From a virus (Duplodnaviria > Heunggongvirae > Uroviricota > Caudoviricetes): a stretch of DNA of 64,000 nt. Below are positions 145 to 49,843 of the stretch, in pieces (the stretch's first letter is position 1; the number at the start of each line of letters is the position of its first letter). The stretch is from the IMG/VR virus record IMGVR_UViG_3300009132_000002; one strand, given 5' to 3'. Both the position numbers and the translations under genes were made by a program. Under the pieces are notes generated by a model, which worked only from the letters and a program-made list of their open reading frames with translations, had not been told where the DNA came from and did no database searches.

Positions 145-329
145 TATAGATTTTTTCCATCAGGTTCGTGTGTTGCTGAATTAGACCAAGCCCAACGCAT
201 ACAATTAAATTTATTATAATGGTTATGCCATGAGTCGTTCTGGGACATACCCATGAGCATACCATTTTTTCTAAGAACATGATACCATGCTATAAATCTT
301 TTAAATCTTTGGGTCATATTGATTGCCAT
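144..329 (-). CDS. hypothetical small protein (61 aa)
   Basis: ORF track; tightly packed with neighbouring minus-strand ORFs. Confidence 0.3.
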   Translation of the reverse strand: MAINMTQRFKRFIAWYHVLRKNGMLMGMSQNDSWHNHYNKFNCMRWAWSNSATHEPDGKNL

Positions 330-564
330 TATATCCAGATCCTGTTTTATTTGGACCAGTTTCTACTCCGCTATTGCAACCTACAACAACCACAAGTAAA
401 AAGAATATGGACCAAAGTACTATTCTTTTAGTCCACACCATGAATTGTTCAAATGTTTTTTCTGCTTCTGCTTGCGCTGCGGCTCTTACTTCTTCGTCAG
501 TCATGTTCGCCGCCAGGACCTCTACTACTATAAAAACTATGGGGATTGCGTTTAGCTGTTTCAA
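301..564 (-). CDS. hypothetical membrane protein (87 aa, one TM segment)
   Basis: ORF track; hydrophobic stretch IVLWSIFFLLVVVVGC. Confidence 0.35.
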   Translation of the reverse strand: MKQLNAIPIVFIVVEVLAANMTDEEVRAAAQAEAEKTFEQFMVWTKRIVLWSIFFLLVVVVGCNSGVETGPNKTGSGYNGNQYDPKI

Positions 565-39056: not shown

Positions 39057-39566
39057 TTACATTCCAACGTCAACCATTACGGTCTGACCAACCCAATGTT
39101 TTTGATTGCTATAAAAATAACCACGTTTATTACCATACTTCCAGTGCACAATTTGTGTTTGTACTTGCTGATTTATTGGTTGATAAACAGTGTTACAAAC
39201 TTGTTGAGATTTATAACCAACGATTTGTCTTGATTGACCACCTTTTGTTGTACTACCAAGAAGACCACCTATAATAGCACCGGGCAAAATACCAGAGTCA
39301 TTACCTTTAGATGTTCCTCCAATTAGACCGCCAATAATTGCTCCAGCAAGAACATTATTATTAACACCTATAGCGTGTTGGTTACGAACTGTTCCATATA
39401 CCGGAACTTGCTGTAAAGAACATTCTTGAACTGGCTCTTGAGTTTGTTGCTGAACATTTACATTTTCTATATACCAAACTTCAGCACCTTGTGTAACAGC
39501 TAAAGCCGCTGAAGCGGTCATAGCAAATACAATTGCAGTTAAAGTTTTTTTCATTTTTTTCTCCAT
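39057..39566 (-). CDS. secreted glycine-zipper (Gly-zipper_Omp / 17-kDa-antigen-like) protein
   Basis: Signal peptide MKKTLTAIVFAMTASAALA; two GAIIGGLIGG-type glycine zippers. Confidence 0.55.
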   Translation of the reverse strand: MEKKMKKTLTAIVFAMTASAALAVTQGAEVWYIENVNVQQQTQEPVQECSLQQVPVYGTVRNQHAIGVNNNVLAGAIIGGLIGGTSKGNDSGILPGAIIGGLLGSTTKGGQSRQIVGYKSQQVCNTVYQPINQQVQTQIVHWKYGNKRGYFYSNQKHWVGQTVMVDVGM

Positions 39567-39609
39567 TAGATTTTACTATTCTAATATATTTTTTGGAAAA
39601 AGTAAACCC

Positions 39610-40104
39610 CTAATTTACACTTTTTCTTCTAATTGCTATTGCCTTTTTAGGATCAAATTTAGCATAGCTTACAGTATTGTCTTGATTTCCACCCAAGATT
39701 ATCCATCTTGTTTTATTTTCATATTGAACTTCTTCTATAAAGAAACCTACATGTCCTTGCCATATTTTATCTCCTCTTGGAAATACTACTATGTCACCTT
39801 TTCTAGGTTTATCTAATACTTCTTCACCCCAAGTTAGAAATGATCTAGCCAAAAGTGGATAATCACTTGTAACTTCAGATCCGGATATTCCTTGCATATC
39901 AAGAACAAAATTAACAAATGCTGCACACCATTGAGTATATACTGGGTCAACACCGACTAATTTTTTTATTTGATTTCTGTCTTTATTTTCATCTAAGCCA
40001 ATATATTGTTCTGCTGGTTTAGATAAATCTTGAAATTCCTCTATAGGTTGACACGCTATAAGAAAACTTAAACAGAAAATTCCTACTGCATTTTTTCTAA
40101 ACAT
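39610..40104 (-). CDS. NlpC/P60 (CHAP-like) peptidoglycan hydrolase lipoprotein
   Basis: Lipobox FLIAC; catalytic Cys in QWCAAFVNFV and His in QGHVGFF. Confidence 0.6.
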   Translation of the reverse strand: MFRKNAVGIFCLSFLIACQPIEEFQDLSKPAEQYIGLDENKDRNQIKKLVGVDPVYTQWCAAFVNFVLDMQGISGSEVTSDYPLLARSFLTWGEEVLDKPRKGDIVVFPRGDKIWQGHVGFFIEEVQYENKTRWIILGGNQDNTVSYAKFDPKKAIAIRRKSVN

Positions 40105-40838
40105 GGCAGATATGCACCCATTGGATGATCACCAATGTTGTCTATTTTGCCTTTCTTTAAGCCCATCCACATGCCCATCAGTCTATCTTTCACTCTTCTC
40201 CAGCCTGTGGCTTTACTATAATCGCCGTGTCTATTAAAATAGTGCATAGTACCATGATGTCTATAACCCATAATCCAAAGAGGAACACGAGTAACTACAT
40301 CATTATTATTTACAAATCTGTGGTGAATCATTCCTAGACTCTTAACATATTTTTTCCAGCCAACTCTTGGCGAACCATATGTGTAAACTTCTACAGGATC
40401 TGCAAGCTTTTCATCGTGAAATGCTCTACTAGCCATAATAGTTGTCATTGCAGCACCTAAACTGTGTCCACAAAACCATAGCTTTTTTCTTACGTTTGTT
40501 TTAACTTCAAGATGTGGTTTTATCATTGGCCATAAATCATCAACTTCGGCTTTAAATCCTTGATGTACTCTGCTTATAGTTTCTGCCATGACAGGTACTG
40601 CTTTTAAATCAGCTTTAACATCATTCCATTGAGTTGGTTCTGTGCCTCTACAAGCAATAACAATGTCATATTTATTCATAAATCTATATGCTTGGGCGCC
40701 ATCTCTATCATAAAATGTTGTTTGATTAAATCCTAAACGTCTTGCAGCTTTCTTCGCTTCTTCAAAAGGTAAATACGATATAGCTGCTAATTTACCAAAT
40801 AATAAACTTCTTTCTTCAAATGATAATCTGGATAGCAT
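40083..40838 (-). CDS. class 3 lipase / alpha-beta hydrolase
   Basis: Nucleophile elbow FCGHSLGAAMTT; late promoter TATAAATA at 40866-40873, 28 nt upstream. Confidence 0.65.
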   Translation of the reverse strand: MLSRLSFEERSLLFGKLAAISYLPFEEAKKAARRLGFNQTTFYDRDGAQAYRFMNKYDIVIACRGTEPTQWNDVKADLKAVPVMAETISRVHQGFKAEVDDLWPMIKPHLEVKTNVRKKLWFCGHSLGAAMTTIMASRAFHDEKLADPVEVYTYGSPRVGWKKYVKSLGMIHHRFVNNNDVVTRVPLWIMGYRHHGTMHYFNRHGDYSKATGWRRVKDRLMGMWMGLKKGKIDNIGDHPMGAYLPCLEKMQ

Positions 40839-43009: not shown

Positions 43010-43052
43010 TTTCACTACTAGTATAACATATTTTTTCTAATTTGTAAACCAT
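43010..43052 (-). promoter_or_regulatory. early promoter (GTTTACA-N17-TATACT)
   Basis: Minus strand GGTTTACAAATTAGAAAAAATATGTTATAC. Confidence 0.45.
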
Positions 43053-43070
43053 TTTATGCATTATATTATT

Positions 43071-43146
43071 TGGAGTACGTGACTGGATTCGAACCAGCAT
43101 GATCCGGGGTTGCAATCCGGCGCCTAACCATTCAGTCCACACGCAC
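43071..43146 (-). tRNA. tRNA-Cys (anticodon GCA), tentative
   Basis: Acceptor GTGCGTG/CACGTAC, anticodon loop TTGCAAC, T arm GCTGG-TTCGAAT-CCAGT, CCA encoded; D arm irregular. Confidence 0.45.
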
Positions 43147-43153
43147 ATATTTT

Positions 43154-43230
43154 TGGAGAACCGTCAGGGGTTCGAACCCTGGACCCCCCGATTAAAAGTC
43201 GGGTGCTCTACCAACTGAAGCTAACGGTTC
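43154..43230 (-). tRNA. tRNA-Lys (anticodon TTT)
   Basis: Acceptor GAACCGT/ACGGTTC, loop CTTTTAA, T-loop GGTTCGAAC, CCA. Confidence 0.75.
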
Positions 43231-43237
43231 AATAAAA

Positions 43238-43313
43238 TGGCGGTCTCAGAAGGACTCGAACCTTCAACCTACGGTTTAGAAGACCGTTGCTCTTCCAGTT
43301 GAGCTATGAGACC
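43238..43313 (-). tRNA. tRNA-Arg (anticodon TCT)
   Basis: Acceptor GGTCTCA/TGAGACC, anticodon arm ACGGT-CTTCTAA-ACCGT, T-loop GGTTCGAGT, CCA. Confidence 0.75.
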
Positions 43314-43314
43314 A

Positions 43315-43689
43315 TTATTCTTTTTCATTAAGTGGCTTAAAGCCATCTAATTTTTCTGTTCTTGGTTCTGGTGTTACAATTTCTTTATCAGAACCATATT
43401 GTTGTTTATGAACTACTTCATTATGAATTTGCTTACTATCTACACTGCGTACGATATAGAAACCTTTATTATATGAAGATATAGCAAAAACTAAAAAGGC
43501 TAAACCAACCGCTATTTTAAATGCGATTTTGACCTTCTTTAGTGCTTCAATTCTATCGCCAAAAATTTCGTTTTCAGGCTCTTTCAGGAATCCTCGGCAT
43601 ATAATATATACGCCGAAGATAAACACTAGAGAAATAATAAGTTTAGCAATTGCATATAGAAGTGCAGAAACTAAAAATGTAAACTCCAT
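43315..43689 (-). CDS. membrane protein (124 aa), partner of the SPFH protein (NfeD-like role suspected)
   Basis: Two TM segments; start 8 nt after the SPFH gene stop. Confidence 0.5.
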   Translation of the reverse strand: MEFTFLVSALLYAIAKLIISLVFIFGVYIICRGFLKEPENEIFGDRIEALKKVKIAFKIAVGLAFLVFAISSYNKGFYIVRSVDSKQIHNEVVHKQQYGSDKEIVTPEPRTEKLDGFKPLNEKE

Positions 43690-43696
43690 TTTTCAC

Positions 43697-44611
43697 CTAT
43701 TTTTTGGTTGGATCAGTTAAAGCAATAGCTGTTTCTAATCCTTGTGAACTTAGCATCTCAACTGGAAAGAATACAACATTTTCATTTCCACCTAGAGATT
43801 CAAGAACCTTCAACCGGCGATACTCTAATAGATCTGGAGTTACACCATTTGCAAGAATACGATTAGTTTCTGCAATTGTTTCAGCTTGTAGAATTTCAGC
43901 ATCTCGTTCTGCTCGTTCAACTTCTAGTTGAGCTTGTGCTTCTCGGATCCGAACTTGAGCATCAGCTTCTGCTCTTTCAATTGCAATGGTACGTTCTGCT
44001 GTGGCTTCCATAGCTTCACGTACAACATCTGGAAACTTAATGCTAGCTAAACCAAATTGTTTAACATCAAATGGTGTTCCTGCAAGTGCTTCTTCAACAA
44101 CATTTCTAAGGGATGCTGAGATTGCTGCCTGATTTGCTGCAATTTCTGATGTTGAATATTCTGACAGCTTAGATCGAACAATGTTACGAACAACTGCTTT
44201 ACCATAAACATCATAAATTCGAGCTAAATCAATATACATTTGATTTGTACCATCACGCCGTGAAGGTGATACCCGATCAAATACACCACGGAGAACTTTT
44301 TCATCCTGAGATAAACCTAGTGTAAATCTAACATCAACACTGATAATCAGGTTATCTTTTGGTAATAGGACATCTAAACTTTCCAGCATACCTTCGTCAC
44401 CTGCTTGGATAACAACTAACTTTTCACAGCCAACTGTCCACCACATACATGGCTTAAGTCTAAACGTTGATGGATTAATGACATCGCCAATATAACCATT
44501 AGGTCCAAGAACCATACCTACAGAAGCGGTTGGAACTTGCGCTCTTTCTCCACATGCTGTTAAAGCTAGTACTGATGCAGAAAGTAGAGACATTTTCAAA
44601 TATTTGTTCAT
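43697..44611 (-). CDS. SPFH / band-7 (stomatin-prohibitin-HflK/C) domain lipoprotein
   Basis: Lipobox LTAC after signal peptide; SPFH core; C-terminal Ala/Glu/Arg-rich coiled coil (ERAEADAQVRIREAQAQLEVERAERDAEILQ); strong sigma70 promoter 44660-44689. Confidence 0.7.
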   Translation of the reverse strand: MNKYLKMSLLSASVLALTACGERAQVPTASVGMVLGPNGYIGDVINPSTFRLKPCMWWTVGCEKLVVIQAGDEGMLESLDVLLPKDNLIISVDVRFTLGLSQDEKVLRGVFDRVSPSRRDGTNQMYIDLARIYDVYGKAVVRNIVRSKLSEYSTSEIAANQAAISASLRNVVEEALAGTPFDVKQFGLASIKFPDVVREAMEATAERTIAIERAEADAQVRIREAQAQLEVERAERDAEILQAETIAETNRILANGVTPDLLEYRRLKVLESLGGNENVVFFPVEMLSSQGLETAIALTDPTKK

Positions 44612-44659: not shown

Positions 44660-44689
44660 ATTATAACATAAAATTTAATAATTGTAAAC
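44660..44689 (-). promoter_or_regulatory. strong sigma70-type promoter (GTTTACA-N17-TATAAT) for the SPFH operon
   Basis: Consensus -35 and -10 with 17-bp spacer; 49 nt upstream of the SPFH start. Confidence 0.6.
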
Positions 44690-44701: not shown

Positions 44702-44785
44702 TGGTGGGTCGAGCAGGAATCGAACCTGCCGTGCTTTTCAGCGGAGGATTTACAATCCCCTGTCACACCTTGTAACATCCGACCC
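44702..44785 (-). tRNA. tRNA-Tyr (anticodon GTA), type II
   Basis: Acceptor GGGTCGG/TCGACCC, anticodon arm GGGGA-TTGTAAA-TCCTC, T-loop GGTTCGATT, CCA. Confidence 0.7.
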
Positions 44786-44790
44786 AAATC

Positions 44791-44882
44791 TGGAAGAAAG
44801 CGGGTGGTATCGAACCCCAAGGAGCTACTAACCCCTCCACTAGTTTTCAAGACTAGGCTGTAGACCTCTACAGATCACTTTC
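44791..44882 (-). tRNA. tRNA-Ser (anticodon TGA), type II
   Basis: Anticodon arm CTAGT-CTTGAAA-ACTAG, long variable arm, T-loop GGTTCGATA, CCA. Confidence 0.7.
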
Positions 44883-44888
44883 CATATT

Positions 44889-45454: not shown

Positions 45455-46063
45455 ATAATTCTCTTAGCTTTTTGACACGTTATTCCGTTTCATGCCTAAG
45501 TTCTTTTCAGCTAATGACTTTCAAGGTGTGCGTATTATGCGCTGGCCAACTCGGAACCCCGTTCGCACTCATTTGTATTTTCGTCAACACCCAATCTTTT
45601 CTCTTCCCCCTCACACAAGGAACGATGAGTTCGCAATCACGCTTATCATTATTCCTATAAAGAGCAGGTGTGCTGTGATAAAATAGAGTATCAATCCAAA
45701 TCGTGCTACCTCTACACTATAGGAGCCATAGCCCCTAGCAGGGATCGAACCTACGCCTATCCGGAGATGATACTCTACATTATCCTATACACCAGTTAAA
45801 CTTTTTTAACACCGTCGACTGTGTAACTGGATGTTGACGAAAATACAAAACAGTTTGGTTTTCCGTATCACTGGTCACGACACCACAGTATAGAGTTATC
45901 ACATAATTACTTTAGCTGGTTAAGCTTTAGTTGTATATGTATCAACTTGTATATCAAGGGAACTGACGGGACCAACCGCCTTCATCCTATCAAGAACTTA
46001 GTCTATCTCTAGTAACTGTCCATCGCGCAACCATCCACCGCCGTAACACTGGACACGGAAACT

Positions 46064-46466: not shown

Positions 46467-46958
46467 TCATTCTATTAGATTCTTTATATAATCTGTGCGG
46501 CCGTGAGCAACACCATCTGCTCCAAAGCTGGCTGCCCAACTTTCTGGCTTAAGCTTAGGTTCGATCCCTGTCATTCCAAGAACATAACCTGCTGCTTCAC
46601 TGGCCGCACAGTTTGAACCATGACGCGGGTCGGTGTTAATATCAAGATGTATCTCGATATCAAACTCGTCAATAAATGGTCCAATTTGAGTATATAATTC
46701 ACAAACTTTTTGAACTTCTTTCATCATCCGCATTTTGGGACGATTTGCTTTCATATCATAGTCTGGTTCACGTGAAGTATGAGAAAATATTTTACAACCT
46801 TTATTGCCATTTTTATGAATAATAGCAACAGTAGCATATCGAGCCATTTTACGCCCTTTAATATATCTTACTGAATCACAACCAAGATATACCTTTGTGT
46901 TTTCATCACATTCTACTAGTATATCAACCATTTCTTCGATCTGATTTTGTGTAAACAT
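46467..46958 (-). CDS. hypothetical protein (163 aa) embedded in the tRNA island
   Basis: ORF track; flanked by tRNA genes on both sides; possible RNase-H-like fold (speculative). Confidence 0.5.
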   Translation of the reverse strand: MFTQNQIEEMVDILVECDENTKVYLGCDSVRYIKGRKMARYATVAIIHKNGNKGCKIFSHTSREPDYDMKANRPKMRMMKEVQKVCELYTQIGPFIDEFDIEIHLDINTDPRHGSNCAASEAAGYVLGMTGIEPKLKPESWAASFGADGVAHGRTDYIKNLIE

Positions 46959-47070: not shown

Positions 47071-47163
47071 TGGCGGAAGCGCTGAGAGTTGAACTCAATG
47101 GAAGGATCACTCCCACACTTGGTTTAGCAAACCAGTCCTAAGACCACTTAGATTGTCACTTCC
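47071..47163 (-). tRNA. tRNA-Ser (anticodon GCT), type II
   Basis: Acceptor GGAAGTG/CGCTTCC, loop TTGCTAA, long variable arm, T-loop AGTTCAACT, CCA. Confidence 0.6.
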
Positions 47164-47640: not shown

Positions 47641-48084
47641 AATTAATTGGCGACCCGTTAGCTGCACACCGTTGGAATGATGTTCGCAACCCCTATCGTA
47701 ATAGGATTTAATTCTCGCAGTAAAATGCCACGGGTCAACAGCATTGTTTACTGGGTTTTAATGCAGGTCTGAGATTACAACCTGTACAGAAAGTCTTTGG
47801 TCATTACCCTATCCCTTGCGAGGAAGGTTCTACCGTTATCCACTGAGCGCCTTACGGCTATCTCAGTAACTTTCAACGCTGCCTTTTTTAAGGAGTGGCT
47901 TTTCTCCTATCATATGCTGCTATTCATCTATCTATATCCCGTCTGCTTTGCACAGCAGTTCACAATCGCTAAATCGTTACGTTTTCAATTTAAATAACTA
48001 CATTCACCTTGCGGGTTTCAGTAGACCACATTCTTCTAGTGAAGTGTGGTATTAAGCGCCTTTCACAGCATACTGGAACAGTCT

Positions 48085-48159
48085 TTCGCTTTTTTGGTTC
48101 ACAGAGTAGGATTTGAACCTACAACCTATTGTTTTCAAGACAATCGCTCTACCGTTGAG
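48085..48159 (-). tRNA. tRNA-like gene, anticodon TGA on a type-I (short variable arm) body, weak acceptor stem; possible pseudogene or unusual decoder
   Basis: D arm GCTC-AACGGTA-GAGC, anticodon arm ATTGT-CTTGAAA-ACAAT, T arm GTAGG-TTCAAAT-CCTAC, CCA; acceptor TCACTAA vs TCTGTGA has two mismatches. Confidence 0.35.
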
Positions 48160-48630
48160 CTATTAGTGAGAAACCTATTAAGATGCGCTGCTCCAGTTGC
48201 TCCATATTTTGTTAAATACAGAATACAACACACCTTCTGTCTTTTGCCTTGCGGGCTACTTGACGTTACTTCGAGACTATTTCTCTAGTAATGCTATAAC
48301 GCCTTTCTACGCAAATAGTCAGACTATATAACTACCTGTTAGTATTCGACATTCAACGAATTGGTATGTCATAGCAAAACCACCACAGTTTTTTTAATCC
48401 TCAGCGATCGCCTCCGGACCTATCCTTTCGGACTATAACTTCGTTTTACTGCCTACCACCTATTACTAATAGATGGGCTTTCTTTCGGATTGGCATAAAT
48501 GCGTCCGAGTAAAGCTAACCCAGGCTTGTTTAGATGGACTCATATTGAGCGGTGACACTTAGGTATATCACCTTTGGGTGTATTGCTACACTTACCCTTT
48601 TTGTATGGATGCTAAACCACCCAGTAATTT

Positions 48631-49769: not shown

Positions 49770-49843
49770 TGGTTGCGCCGGATGGATTTGACACCACCAG
49801 TTCAAGATTATGAGTCTTGCGTGTTACTTGACACTACTGCGCA
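49770..49843 (-). tRNA. tRNA with anticodon CAT (Met, fMet or Ile2), atypical T-loop
   Basis: Anticodon arm CAAGA-CTCATAA-TCTTG, D arm GTGT-CAAGTA-ACAC, T region GGTGG-TGTCAAAT-CCATC, CCA. Confidence 0.55.

Follow-up and report, generated by a model that had tools for sequence, protein, structure and literature searches.

Why does a phage carry a gene for an SPFH/Band-7 lipoprotein, followed at once by a gene for a small membrane protein, in the middle of its tRNA genes? We addressed this question for a two-gene cassette at positions 43,315–44,611 (minus strand) of the IMG/VR virus record IMGVR_UViG_3300009132_000002, which was analysed as a stretch of 64,000 nt (hereafter the window). The answer to which we lean, with rather more confidence than doubt, is that the cassette is a two-gene early envelope module, in which a periplasmic, lipid-anchored SPFH ring or cage would be docked to the tail of its membrane partner.

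The first gene (43,697–44,611, minus strand) encodes a 304-aa protein that an initial annotation had read as an SPFH-domain lipoprotein with the lipobox LTAC, and this reading was borne out. The N-terminus of the protein (MNKYLKMSLLSASVLALTAC) consists of a positively charged n-region, a hydrophobic core and the lipobox L-T-A-C20, with Gly after the Cys; signal peptide and lipobox together occupy aa 1–20 (44,552–44,611). Pfam Band_7 (PF01145) matched residues 62–227 (43,931–44,428) at 43.5 bits against a gathering cut-off (GA) of 23.6 (E = 4.6e-11), so that the SPFH profile match on which the annotation had staked its claim was found above the Pfam threshold. The protein also matched PHROG 200, annotated as 'lipoprotein', at E = 1.4e-33. 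A database search recovered 87 environmental homologues, mostly with 50–73% identity (outliers 98% and 41%); PF01145 was present in all 87, many of which lie on contigs of 40–230 kb. Both open reading frames (ORFs) of the cassette were found on the minus strand exactly where they had been placed, and by their conservation neither is a chance ORF, because the 87 SPFH homologues are joined by a 58-member partner family with invariant residues.

Several features of the 54-sequence SPFH alignment bear on the compartment of the protein. All members but one (53 of 54) have the lipobox, the first conserved strand follows the lipidated Cys after only 3–8 residues, and Asp never occupies the +2 position. 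Two cysteines at or just before the start of the Band_7 domain, C55 and C62, are invariant, which fits a periplasmic disulfide. Together, these features support the prediction that the protein is exported and lipid-modified at Cys20; it is the sequence pattern of signal peptide plus lipobox that points to membrane attachment. The window, which is part of a genome, holds this single SPFH ORF, and no second paralogue that could form an HflK/C-like pair was found in its 64 kb. The NCBIfam HflK/HflC models gave no match to the protein, and neither cassette protein matched the PADLOC defence-system models at E ≤ 0.01. Among 185,579 representative cellular genomes, no SPFH relative was confirmed by a scan, which was pattern-seeded from the coiled-coil region and does not prove absence.

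An AlphaFold2 (AF2) model of the SPFH monomer, built with the 54-sequence alignment, reached a pLDDT of 88.4. The model consists of N-terminal strands, an alpha/beta domain, a coiled-coil helix of 62 residues (aa 195–256; 43,844–44,029), a second helix (aa 259–274) and a C-terminal segment with the strand NxNVVFFP, in which N276, N278, F281 and F282 are nearly invariant and P283 is invariant across the alignment. Foldseek searches against the PDB aligned the model, at probability 1.00 and over ~270–327 columns, with prohibitin (8rrh, 9o9z), stomatin (9oh9, 9z7u), HflK/C (7vhq, 7wi3, 9cz2), erlin, flotillin and QmcA of the QmcA–YbbJ complex (8z5g). Sequence identity to these structural matches was 11–18%. 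Consistently, a profile search of PDB sequences with the SPFH family returned prohibitin, flotillin, stomatin and QmcA. The modelled fold is that of the cage-forming SPFH members, with alpha/beta domain, coiled-coil helix and C-terminal segment. The helix that had been described as an Ala/Glu/Arg coiled-coil tail is real in the model, and it is a canonical SPFH segment rather than an appendage: the agreement of the Foldseek and profile searches argues that it is the standard wall-forming helix of SPFH cages.

The second gene (43,315–43,689, minus strand) encodes the 124-aa protein with two transmembrane (TM) segments that had been noted downstream; the gap between the genes is 7 nt (TAG-gtgaaaa-ATG) and not the 8 nt first given, and the GGTGA Shine–Dalgarno sequence of the partner overlaps the SPFH stop codon. 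Hydropathy and AF2 agree on hydrophobic helices at about residues 2–34 and 55–74 followed by a hydrophilic tail, and the AF2 model (pLDDT 68) shows a helical hairpin, a short helix at 85–98 and an unstructured C-terminus, with no strands. A database search with the single sequence returned only the protein itself and one copy of 91% identity, and there was no match in Pfam, in PHROGs or in phage genomes (tblastn) and no informative match in NCBIfam. A profile made from 7 syntenic partners recovered 59 proteins of 96–124 aa, none with a Pfam domain, and an exhaustive search of 1.84 billion cluster representatives with a hidden Markov model (HMM) detected 83 that belong to the family. R110, G116 and F117 are invariant in a 58-sequence alignment of the family and lie within the C-terminal motif IVTPEPRTEKLDGFKPL (aa 104–120; 43,330–43,380); the consensus of the tail is QPK[LV]x[IL]D ... 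NRxLIEYQ ... [VI][VI]IxTPxPRTExLxGFxPLK. Scored by regular expression, the motif was found in all window-type loci scored except L027, L028 and L033. Two TM segments were detected in 56 of the 58 partners; the loop between the helices is net positive in 50 (mean +2.1), and the tail, 45–53 residues long, is net negative in 51 (mean −2.8). Because of this charge distribution, the positive-inside rule predicts a cytoplasmic loop and a periplasmic acidic tail, which would place the tail in the compartment of the lipoprotein.

The pair had been likened to bacterial SPFH–NfeD pairs, and the likeness holds for the arrangement, in which an SPFH gene shares its operon with the gene for a small membrane protein. 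If it extended to homology, the cassette would be a genuine SPFH–NfeD operon, and the 124-aa protein would be a short, diverged NfeD whose role, like that of YbbJ towards QmcA, is to promote oligomerisation of its SPFH protein. Genes for NfeD proteins typically occur together with SPFH genes (PMC13086221), and QmcA is among the structural matches of the SPFH model. However, none of the 58 partner family members, the window protein included, matched NfeD (PF01957) at E ≤ 1, and NCBIfam gave no match either. The AF2 model, a helical hairpin whose tail is unstructured, lacks the beta-barrel of an OB fold, and at ~50 residues the tail has neither the length for such a fold nor a suitable composition, being too rich in proline and charge. 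The predicted periplasmic position of the tail also differs from that in the solved QmcA(YbbK)–YbbJ complex, whose cage protrudes into the cytoplasm (PMC13086221). The NfeD-type features that the partner does possess, two TM helices and an SPFH operon, are insufficient by themselves for NfeD membership. We therefore rejected the partner as an NfeD protein and regard a true SPFH–NfeD operon as very improbable.

We then asked how constantly the two genes occur together. When distinct loci of the window subfamily were scored with HMMs of both families, 14 of 14 had the partner gene downstream of the SPFH gene, with gaps of −38 to +311 nt, stop and start codons commonly overlapping, and SPFH proteins diverging down to ~53% identity. 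An ORF of 110–120 aa lay directly 3' of the SPFH gene in all environmental loci fetched through SPFH homologues, with one ORF between them in L007. In the reverse direction, two partner matches picked solely by the size of their contig were both immediately 3' of a Band_7 gene. Several metagenomic contigs carry identical copies of the cassette, and the 8 cassette loci from a scan of IMG/VR likewise include several duplicates. The arrangement extends to more distant phages. Ten of 13 cultured phages whose SPFH proteins share 25–36% identity with that of the window encode a same-strand ORF of 100–130 aa with two TM segments and a tail, directly downstream or one gene away; these are Alteromonas PT11-V22, Acidovorax ACP17, Vibrio nt-1, 6E35.1a, vB_CoeS_P1, valsw3, Aeromonas AhSzq-1 and PAc, Variovorax V45v66 and Pseudomonas vB_PseuGesM_254. 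The tail motifs of these distant partners differ (SPIT[RQ]P; QP[ST]Y[ML]PKG; FDEMV[KR]YK). Position and architecture are thus what the sequences indicate to be conserved across phages, profile–profile homology not being established there, and within the window clade the partner sequence is conserved as well. With its 7-nt gap and synteny in 14 of 14 loci, the apparent operon of SPFH gene and two-TM partner is supported.

Transcription of the cassette appears to start at a promoter of the sigma70, T4-early type (44,660–44,688, minus strand), which reads TTTACA–17 nt–TGt–TATAAT and is preceded by a run of nine A residues. Its hexamers (TTTACA at 44,688–44,683; TATAAT, with TGt, at 44,665–44,660) agree with the consensus at 11 of 12 positions and include an extended −10 element, and it was the top-scoring site in the region 40.5–52 kb; the strong sigma70 promoter originally placed at 44,660–44,689 was thereby corroborated. 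Sites of the class TTTACN18TATAAT (≤ 1 mismatch) are enriched in the window, with 19 occurrences against 6.3 ± 2.5 in shuffled sequences, and this class resembles the T4 early-promoter consensus. The tRNA genes reported on both sides are present. Upstream, tRNA-Tyr(gta) (44,702–44,785) ends 14 nt before the −35 hexamer; downstream, tRNA-Arg(tct), tRNA-Lys(ttt) and tRNA-Cys(gca) follow the partner directly (43,071–43,313, all minus strand), with tRNA-Arg (43,238–43,313) beginning 1 nt past the partner stop codon. A second promoter of the same class (43,020–43,048, minus strand; TTTACA, 17 nt, TG-TATACT) lies downstream of tRNA-Cys and upstream of an ORF matching PHROG 12504, whose listed 197-aa frame overlaps tRNA-Cys and probably starts further in. 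As no terminator-like site was found on the minus strand between the partner stop codon and tRNA-Arg, the cassette transcript probably continues into tRNA-Arg, tRNA-Lys and tRNA-Cys.

This missing terminator would also suit a simpler account, namely that the two genes are mere neighbours, the 124-aa ORF encoding an unrelated membrane protein and the promoter serving the downstream tRNAs. It would explain why the partner sequence alone finds only near-identical copies and why three of the distant phages do without a partner. We consider this account improbable, since the two genes adjoin in 14 of 14 loci down to ~53% SPFH identity, often so closely that stop and start codons overlap, the reverse test starting from the partner also led to SPFH genes, the architecture is kept in 10 of 13 distant phages with different flanking genes, and the C-terminal motif is invariant.

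A homologue offers an analogy for the timing of expression. PAK_P3 gp041, which is 31% identical to the window SPFH protein, gave normalised RNA-seq counts of 38,887, 31,493 and 18,215 at 3.5 min and of 26,547, 22,853 and 12,613 at 13 min, so that it is strongly transcribed both early and late, with a log2 fold change of −0.51 that was not significant, and its 3.5-min value was the highest among gp001–gp051 (PMC4933390 S5 Table). By analogy, early and sustained expression of the cassette fits these data, in agreement with its sigma70-type promoter. The same data bear on whether the cassette could be a lysis module, either a spanin-like pair of lipoprotein and inner-membrane protein or a scaffold that times holin triggering. 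A lipoprotein gene followed or overlapped by an inner-membrane protein gene is formally the layout of a two-component spanin, and a cage together with a tail of 45–53 residues could span the periplasm. The cassette is also often near RNA ligase or PNKP genes, and the T4 spanin genes adjoin pseT. On the other side, the promoter is of the sigma70 early type and the PAK_P3 homologue is not induced late. Two-component spanins comprise a single-TM, coiled-coil i-spanin and a small, proline-rich o-spanin that are expressed late; here the partner, with its two TM helices, lacks a periplasmic coiled coil, the 304-aa SPFH lipoprotein is five times the size of an o-spanin, and the partner is missing in three phages. 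A role in lysis is accordingly a weak candidate, on a par with chance adjacency.

These observations are best accommodated, in our view, by the early envelope module proposed at the outset. A sigma70 promoter of the T4-early type in a virulent T4-like phage would drive both genes. The product of the first would be exported and lipidated at Cys20, the complete SPFH protein starting a few residues past the anchor, and, like stomatin, prohibitin, QmcA and HflK/C, would most likely assemble into a ring or cage that sits on a membrane patch, on the periplasmic side, and walls it off; this cage would be built from one subunit type and is probably homo-oligomeric. The product of the second would form a helical hairpin in the inner membrane, with a short N-terminus and the acidic tail of 45–53 residues in the periplasm. 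The end of that tail, TPxPRTExLxGFxPL, would most likely dock on the SPFH assembly and so tether or organise the cage at the inner membrane. The module would act on the host envelope from early infection onward, and its most probable role is a generic one: to scaffold or sequester membrane proteins exposed to the periplasm, with FtsH-type quality control as the obvious candidate, or to stabilise the envelope. Members of the SPFH family occur in T4-like, T5-like, PAK_P3-like and jumbo phages that infect Gram-negative bacteria, and this broad distribution leads us to favour a generic, host-directed role over a phage-specific target, and to rank it above superinfection exclusion or lysis. As functions of the cassette, lysis timing, superinfection exclusion and FtsH control are all speculative. 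A bolder form of the proposal, which we put forward tentatively, is that large virulent phages of Gram-negative bacteria make a periplasmic SPFH cage of their own, lipid-anchored to one membrane, which a dedicated hairpin adaptor links to the inner membrane by means of its C-terminal R..GF peptide. Such a cage would constitute an envelope compartment or trans-periplasmic tether that from the first minutes of infection sequesters FtsH or other quality-control or stress-sensing complexes, or braces the envelope.

Superinfection exclusion or receptor masking, which the module could effect if an outer-membrane lipoprotein and its partner blocked the receptor or the entry of DNA in the manner of T5 Llp or T4 Imm and Sp, ranks next, as an unlikely alternative. 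It would agree with the early-type promoter, with the early and sustained transcription of the PAK_P3 homologue, with a periplasmic lipoprotein whose +2 residue is not Asp and with the position of the cassette in KVP40-like phages, between gp25 and gp5.4/gp5; the small, two-TM inner-membrane partner also recalls T4 Imm. Yet exclusion proteins are usually lineage-specific, and the SPFH family is common to phages with unrelated tails and receptors at 25–36% identity. The SPFH fold has no known precedent in exclusion, and a tether of 3–8 residues is unusually short for an outer-membrane lipoprotein.

Several points count against the envelope module as we have drawn it. The first concerns the anchor: by the Escherichia coli rule, a non-Asp +2 residue would send the lipoprotein to the outer membrane, which would change the geometry of the model, whereas a tether this short, and a partner in the inner membrane, favour the inner membrane. 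The partner tail, on which docking would depend, was modelled at low confidence (pLDDT 53–67). Comparison of the three partner subtypes with hhalign gave probabilities of 4.9%, 46.6% and 74%, so that their homology is not established. Three of the 13 distant phages, the Pseudomonas phages PAK_P3, pf16 and Psa21, have the SPFH gene without a TM partner, and the partner would therefore be dispensable in some hosts. The chief purpose of the strong promoter may be the three tRNAs downstream, and the timing was deduced from an unrelated phage, whose homologue is 31% identical.

The genomic setting of the cassette raised the further question of how it was acquired. All long ORFs in the 64-kb window are on the minus strand, and homologues of T4 gp23 (major head), gp20 (portal), gp18 (sheath), gp17 (terminase) and gp46 were found among them. 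No record of the phage collection exceeds 66% identity to the major capsid protein (Phage C48C1, 66%; Pelagibacter phage HTVC008M, 61%), and a DNA-level search of known phages with the window returned tRNA matches only and no close cultured relative. On these grounds the window can be assigned to an uncultured, marine-type T4-like myophage. ARAGORN detected 26 tRNA genes between 41,665 and 51,420, on the minus strand throughout. The cassette has tRNA neighbours in the window and in two other loci (L029 and L020), and the first 11 comparison loci were all without tRNAs. We therefore set aside a tRNA-linked function and read the association as shared residence. Elsewhere, RNA-repair or tRNA-related genes lie within a few kb of the cassette in unrelated phages (L006, L008–L011, L003, L005 and L018), the recurrent neighbours being an RNA ligase (T4 Rnl1-type or PF09414), a PNKP-type phosphatase, a CCA-adding enzyme, peptidyl-tRNA hydrolase 2 and Macro-domain genes. 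The cassette occupies the left arm in T5-like phages, and in the pf16 record it has its own annotated promoters and terminator. These unrelated neighbourhoods across lineages, together with the pf16 promoters and terminator, indicate that the cassette is mobile as a unit. To that extent the moron-style acquisition suggested by the initial annotation finds support. Of the features that define a moron, an own promoter, an own terminator and an atypical composition, the window offers the promoter alone: no terminator was found, and the GC content of the cassette (0.37–0.40) is like that of neighbouring coding DNA, with no compositional anomaly. These data suggest that the cassette is a resident of an early accessory region that holds tRNAs and RNA-repair genes, and not a classical moron.

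The tRNA island has other contents. A full-length GOLLD RNA lies at 47,766–48,236 (minus strand; Rfam RF02032, 183.5 bits against a GA of 150, E = 5e-50) and encloses tRNA-Ser(tga) at 48,095–48,169. Two sites that ARAGORN missed, 44,795–44,883 and 47,075–47,163 (both minus strand), matched the tRNA-Sec model at 52.2 and 47.9 bits (GA 47). The former, between tRNA-Tyr and tRNA-Ile and just upstream of the cassette promoter, folds with an 8-bp acceptor stem, a 6-bp D stem and a long variable arm and has the anticodon UGA (Ser), a selenocysteine-like or 'allo-tRNA'-like shape. A further tRNA match outside the ARAGORN list is at 49,773–49,843. About 600 nt between two tRNA-Asn genes (45,455–46,063) are GC-rich (0.41–0.49) and contain no plausible minus-strand ORF; the sole match there was a weak Y-RNA-like (YrlA) one at 45,676–45,787 (26.9 bits against a GA of 69, E = 0.003). 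Between tRNA-Val and tRNA-Gln, a 163-aa ORF (46,467–46,958, minus strand) matched PHROG 11311 (E = 1.5e-50), with PF04308 RNaseH_like on record. Just before the island, at 39,057–40,838 (minus strand), is a cluster of probable exported or envelope-acting proteins: a Gly-rich one of 169 aa that seems to begin with a signal peptide, one of 164 aa that is a lipobox candidate (MFRKNAVGIFCLSFLIAC...) and one of 251 aa for which a Pfam Lipase_3 match is on record. At 301–564 (minus strand), an internal Met would give a 46-aa candidate lipoprotein (MVWTKRIVLWSIFFLLVVVVGC...) overlapping a 101-aa membrane-protein ORF (497–802), and the two could be a small envelope or lysis pair.

The SPFH family is already known in phages, in PHROG 200 and in GenBank as 'lipoprotein', 'SPFH/band 7' or 'stomatin-like'. 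PHROG 200 comprises 128 cultured phage records with function unassigned; its SPFH lipoproteins (PAK_P3 gp041, those of KVP40-like phages and of Aeromonas and Vibrio T5-like phages, and the 'stomatin-like protein' of Alteromonas PT11-V22) share 25–36% identity with the window protein over more than 80% of the length, have lipoboxes and mostly precede a two-TM + tail ORF. The window protein differs from them in belonging to a separate, uncultured marine-type clade (mostly 50–73% identity internally) with its own partner subtype and motif. SPFH/Band 7 ORFs were tabulated in 2006 in the T4-like phages 44RR, Aeh1 and RB43 (PMC1524935), and these too are accessory SPFH genes of T4-like phages. In their case no partner was described, and RB43 and other Escherichia phages fell outside the tblastn matches of the window SPFH protein, so at least some of the 2006 ORFs belong to another SPFH subfamily. 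The Pasteurella multocida prophage protein PM0222, an HflK/C-like SPFH protein and TLR1/2 agonist detected in outer-membrane vesicles (PMC9872710), shows that a phage-borne SPFH protein can reach the outer membrane or vesicles and is a precedent for export. It comes, however, from a temperate lambda-like prophage and lies outside the window SPFH matches at E ≤ 1e-5. Our literature searches found no functional study of the phage SPFH family, and the hairpin partner, its motif, the predicted periplasmic pairing and the non-NfeD adaptor appear to be undescribed.

SPFH cages, including HflK/C, prohibitin, stomatin, flotillin, erlin and QmcA–YbbJ, have been a very active structural topic since 2022, and their cellular roles are debated. 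If the bolder form of the proposal is true, the phage assembly would be without precedent among SPFH cages in three respects: its lipoprotein anchor, its viral origin and its adaptor of a non-NfeD class. A compact, single-subunit, lipid-anchored phage SPFH protein with a defined peptide-bearing partner and a defined switch-on time would be a tractable system for studying how such a cage affects a membrane, in which the partner family and its motif offer a handle for pull-downs and mutagenesis. As an accessory module it is widespread, occurring in the 128 cultured phage records and in many uncultured marine-type T4-like phages, and it may reveal an envelope step of host takeover.

Two cellular systems frame the comparison. 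Like the HflK/HflC cage that surrounds FtsH in E. coli, the phage protein has the SPFH fold, a coiled-coil wall, a C-terminal cap and an SPFH domain in the periplasm (here by prediction). HflK and HflC, at 13–18% identity, are anchored by an N-terminal TM segment and work as a pair, whereas the window encodes a single SPFH ORF with a lipid anchor, and a link to FtsH is a speculative candidate here. Like QmcA(YbbK)–YbbJ and other SPFH–NfeD pairs, the cassette joins an SPFH gene to that of a small multi-TM protein with a possible role in organising the oligomer, and QmcA (8z5g) is a structural match. In contrast to YbbJ, the phage partner has no NfeD/OB domain and ends instead in a short linear motif, and its predicted compartment is the periplasm. 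The module therefore resembles HflK/C in compartment and fold and SPFH–NfeD pairs in gene arrangement, and is a member of neither family.

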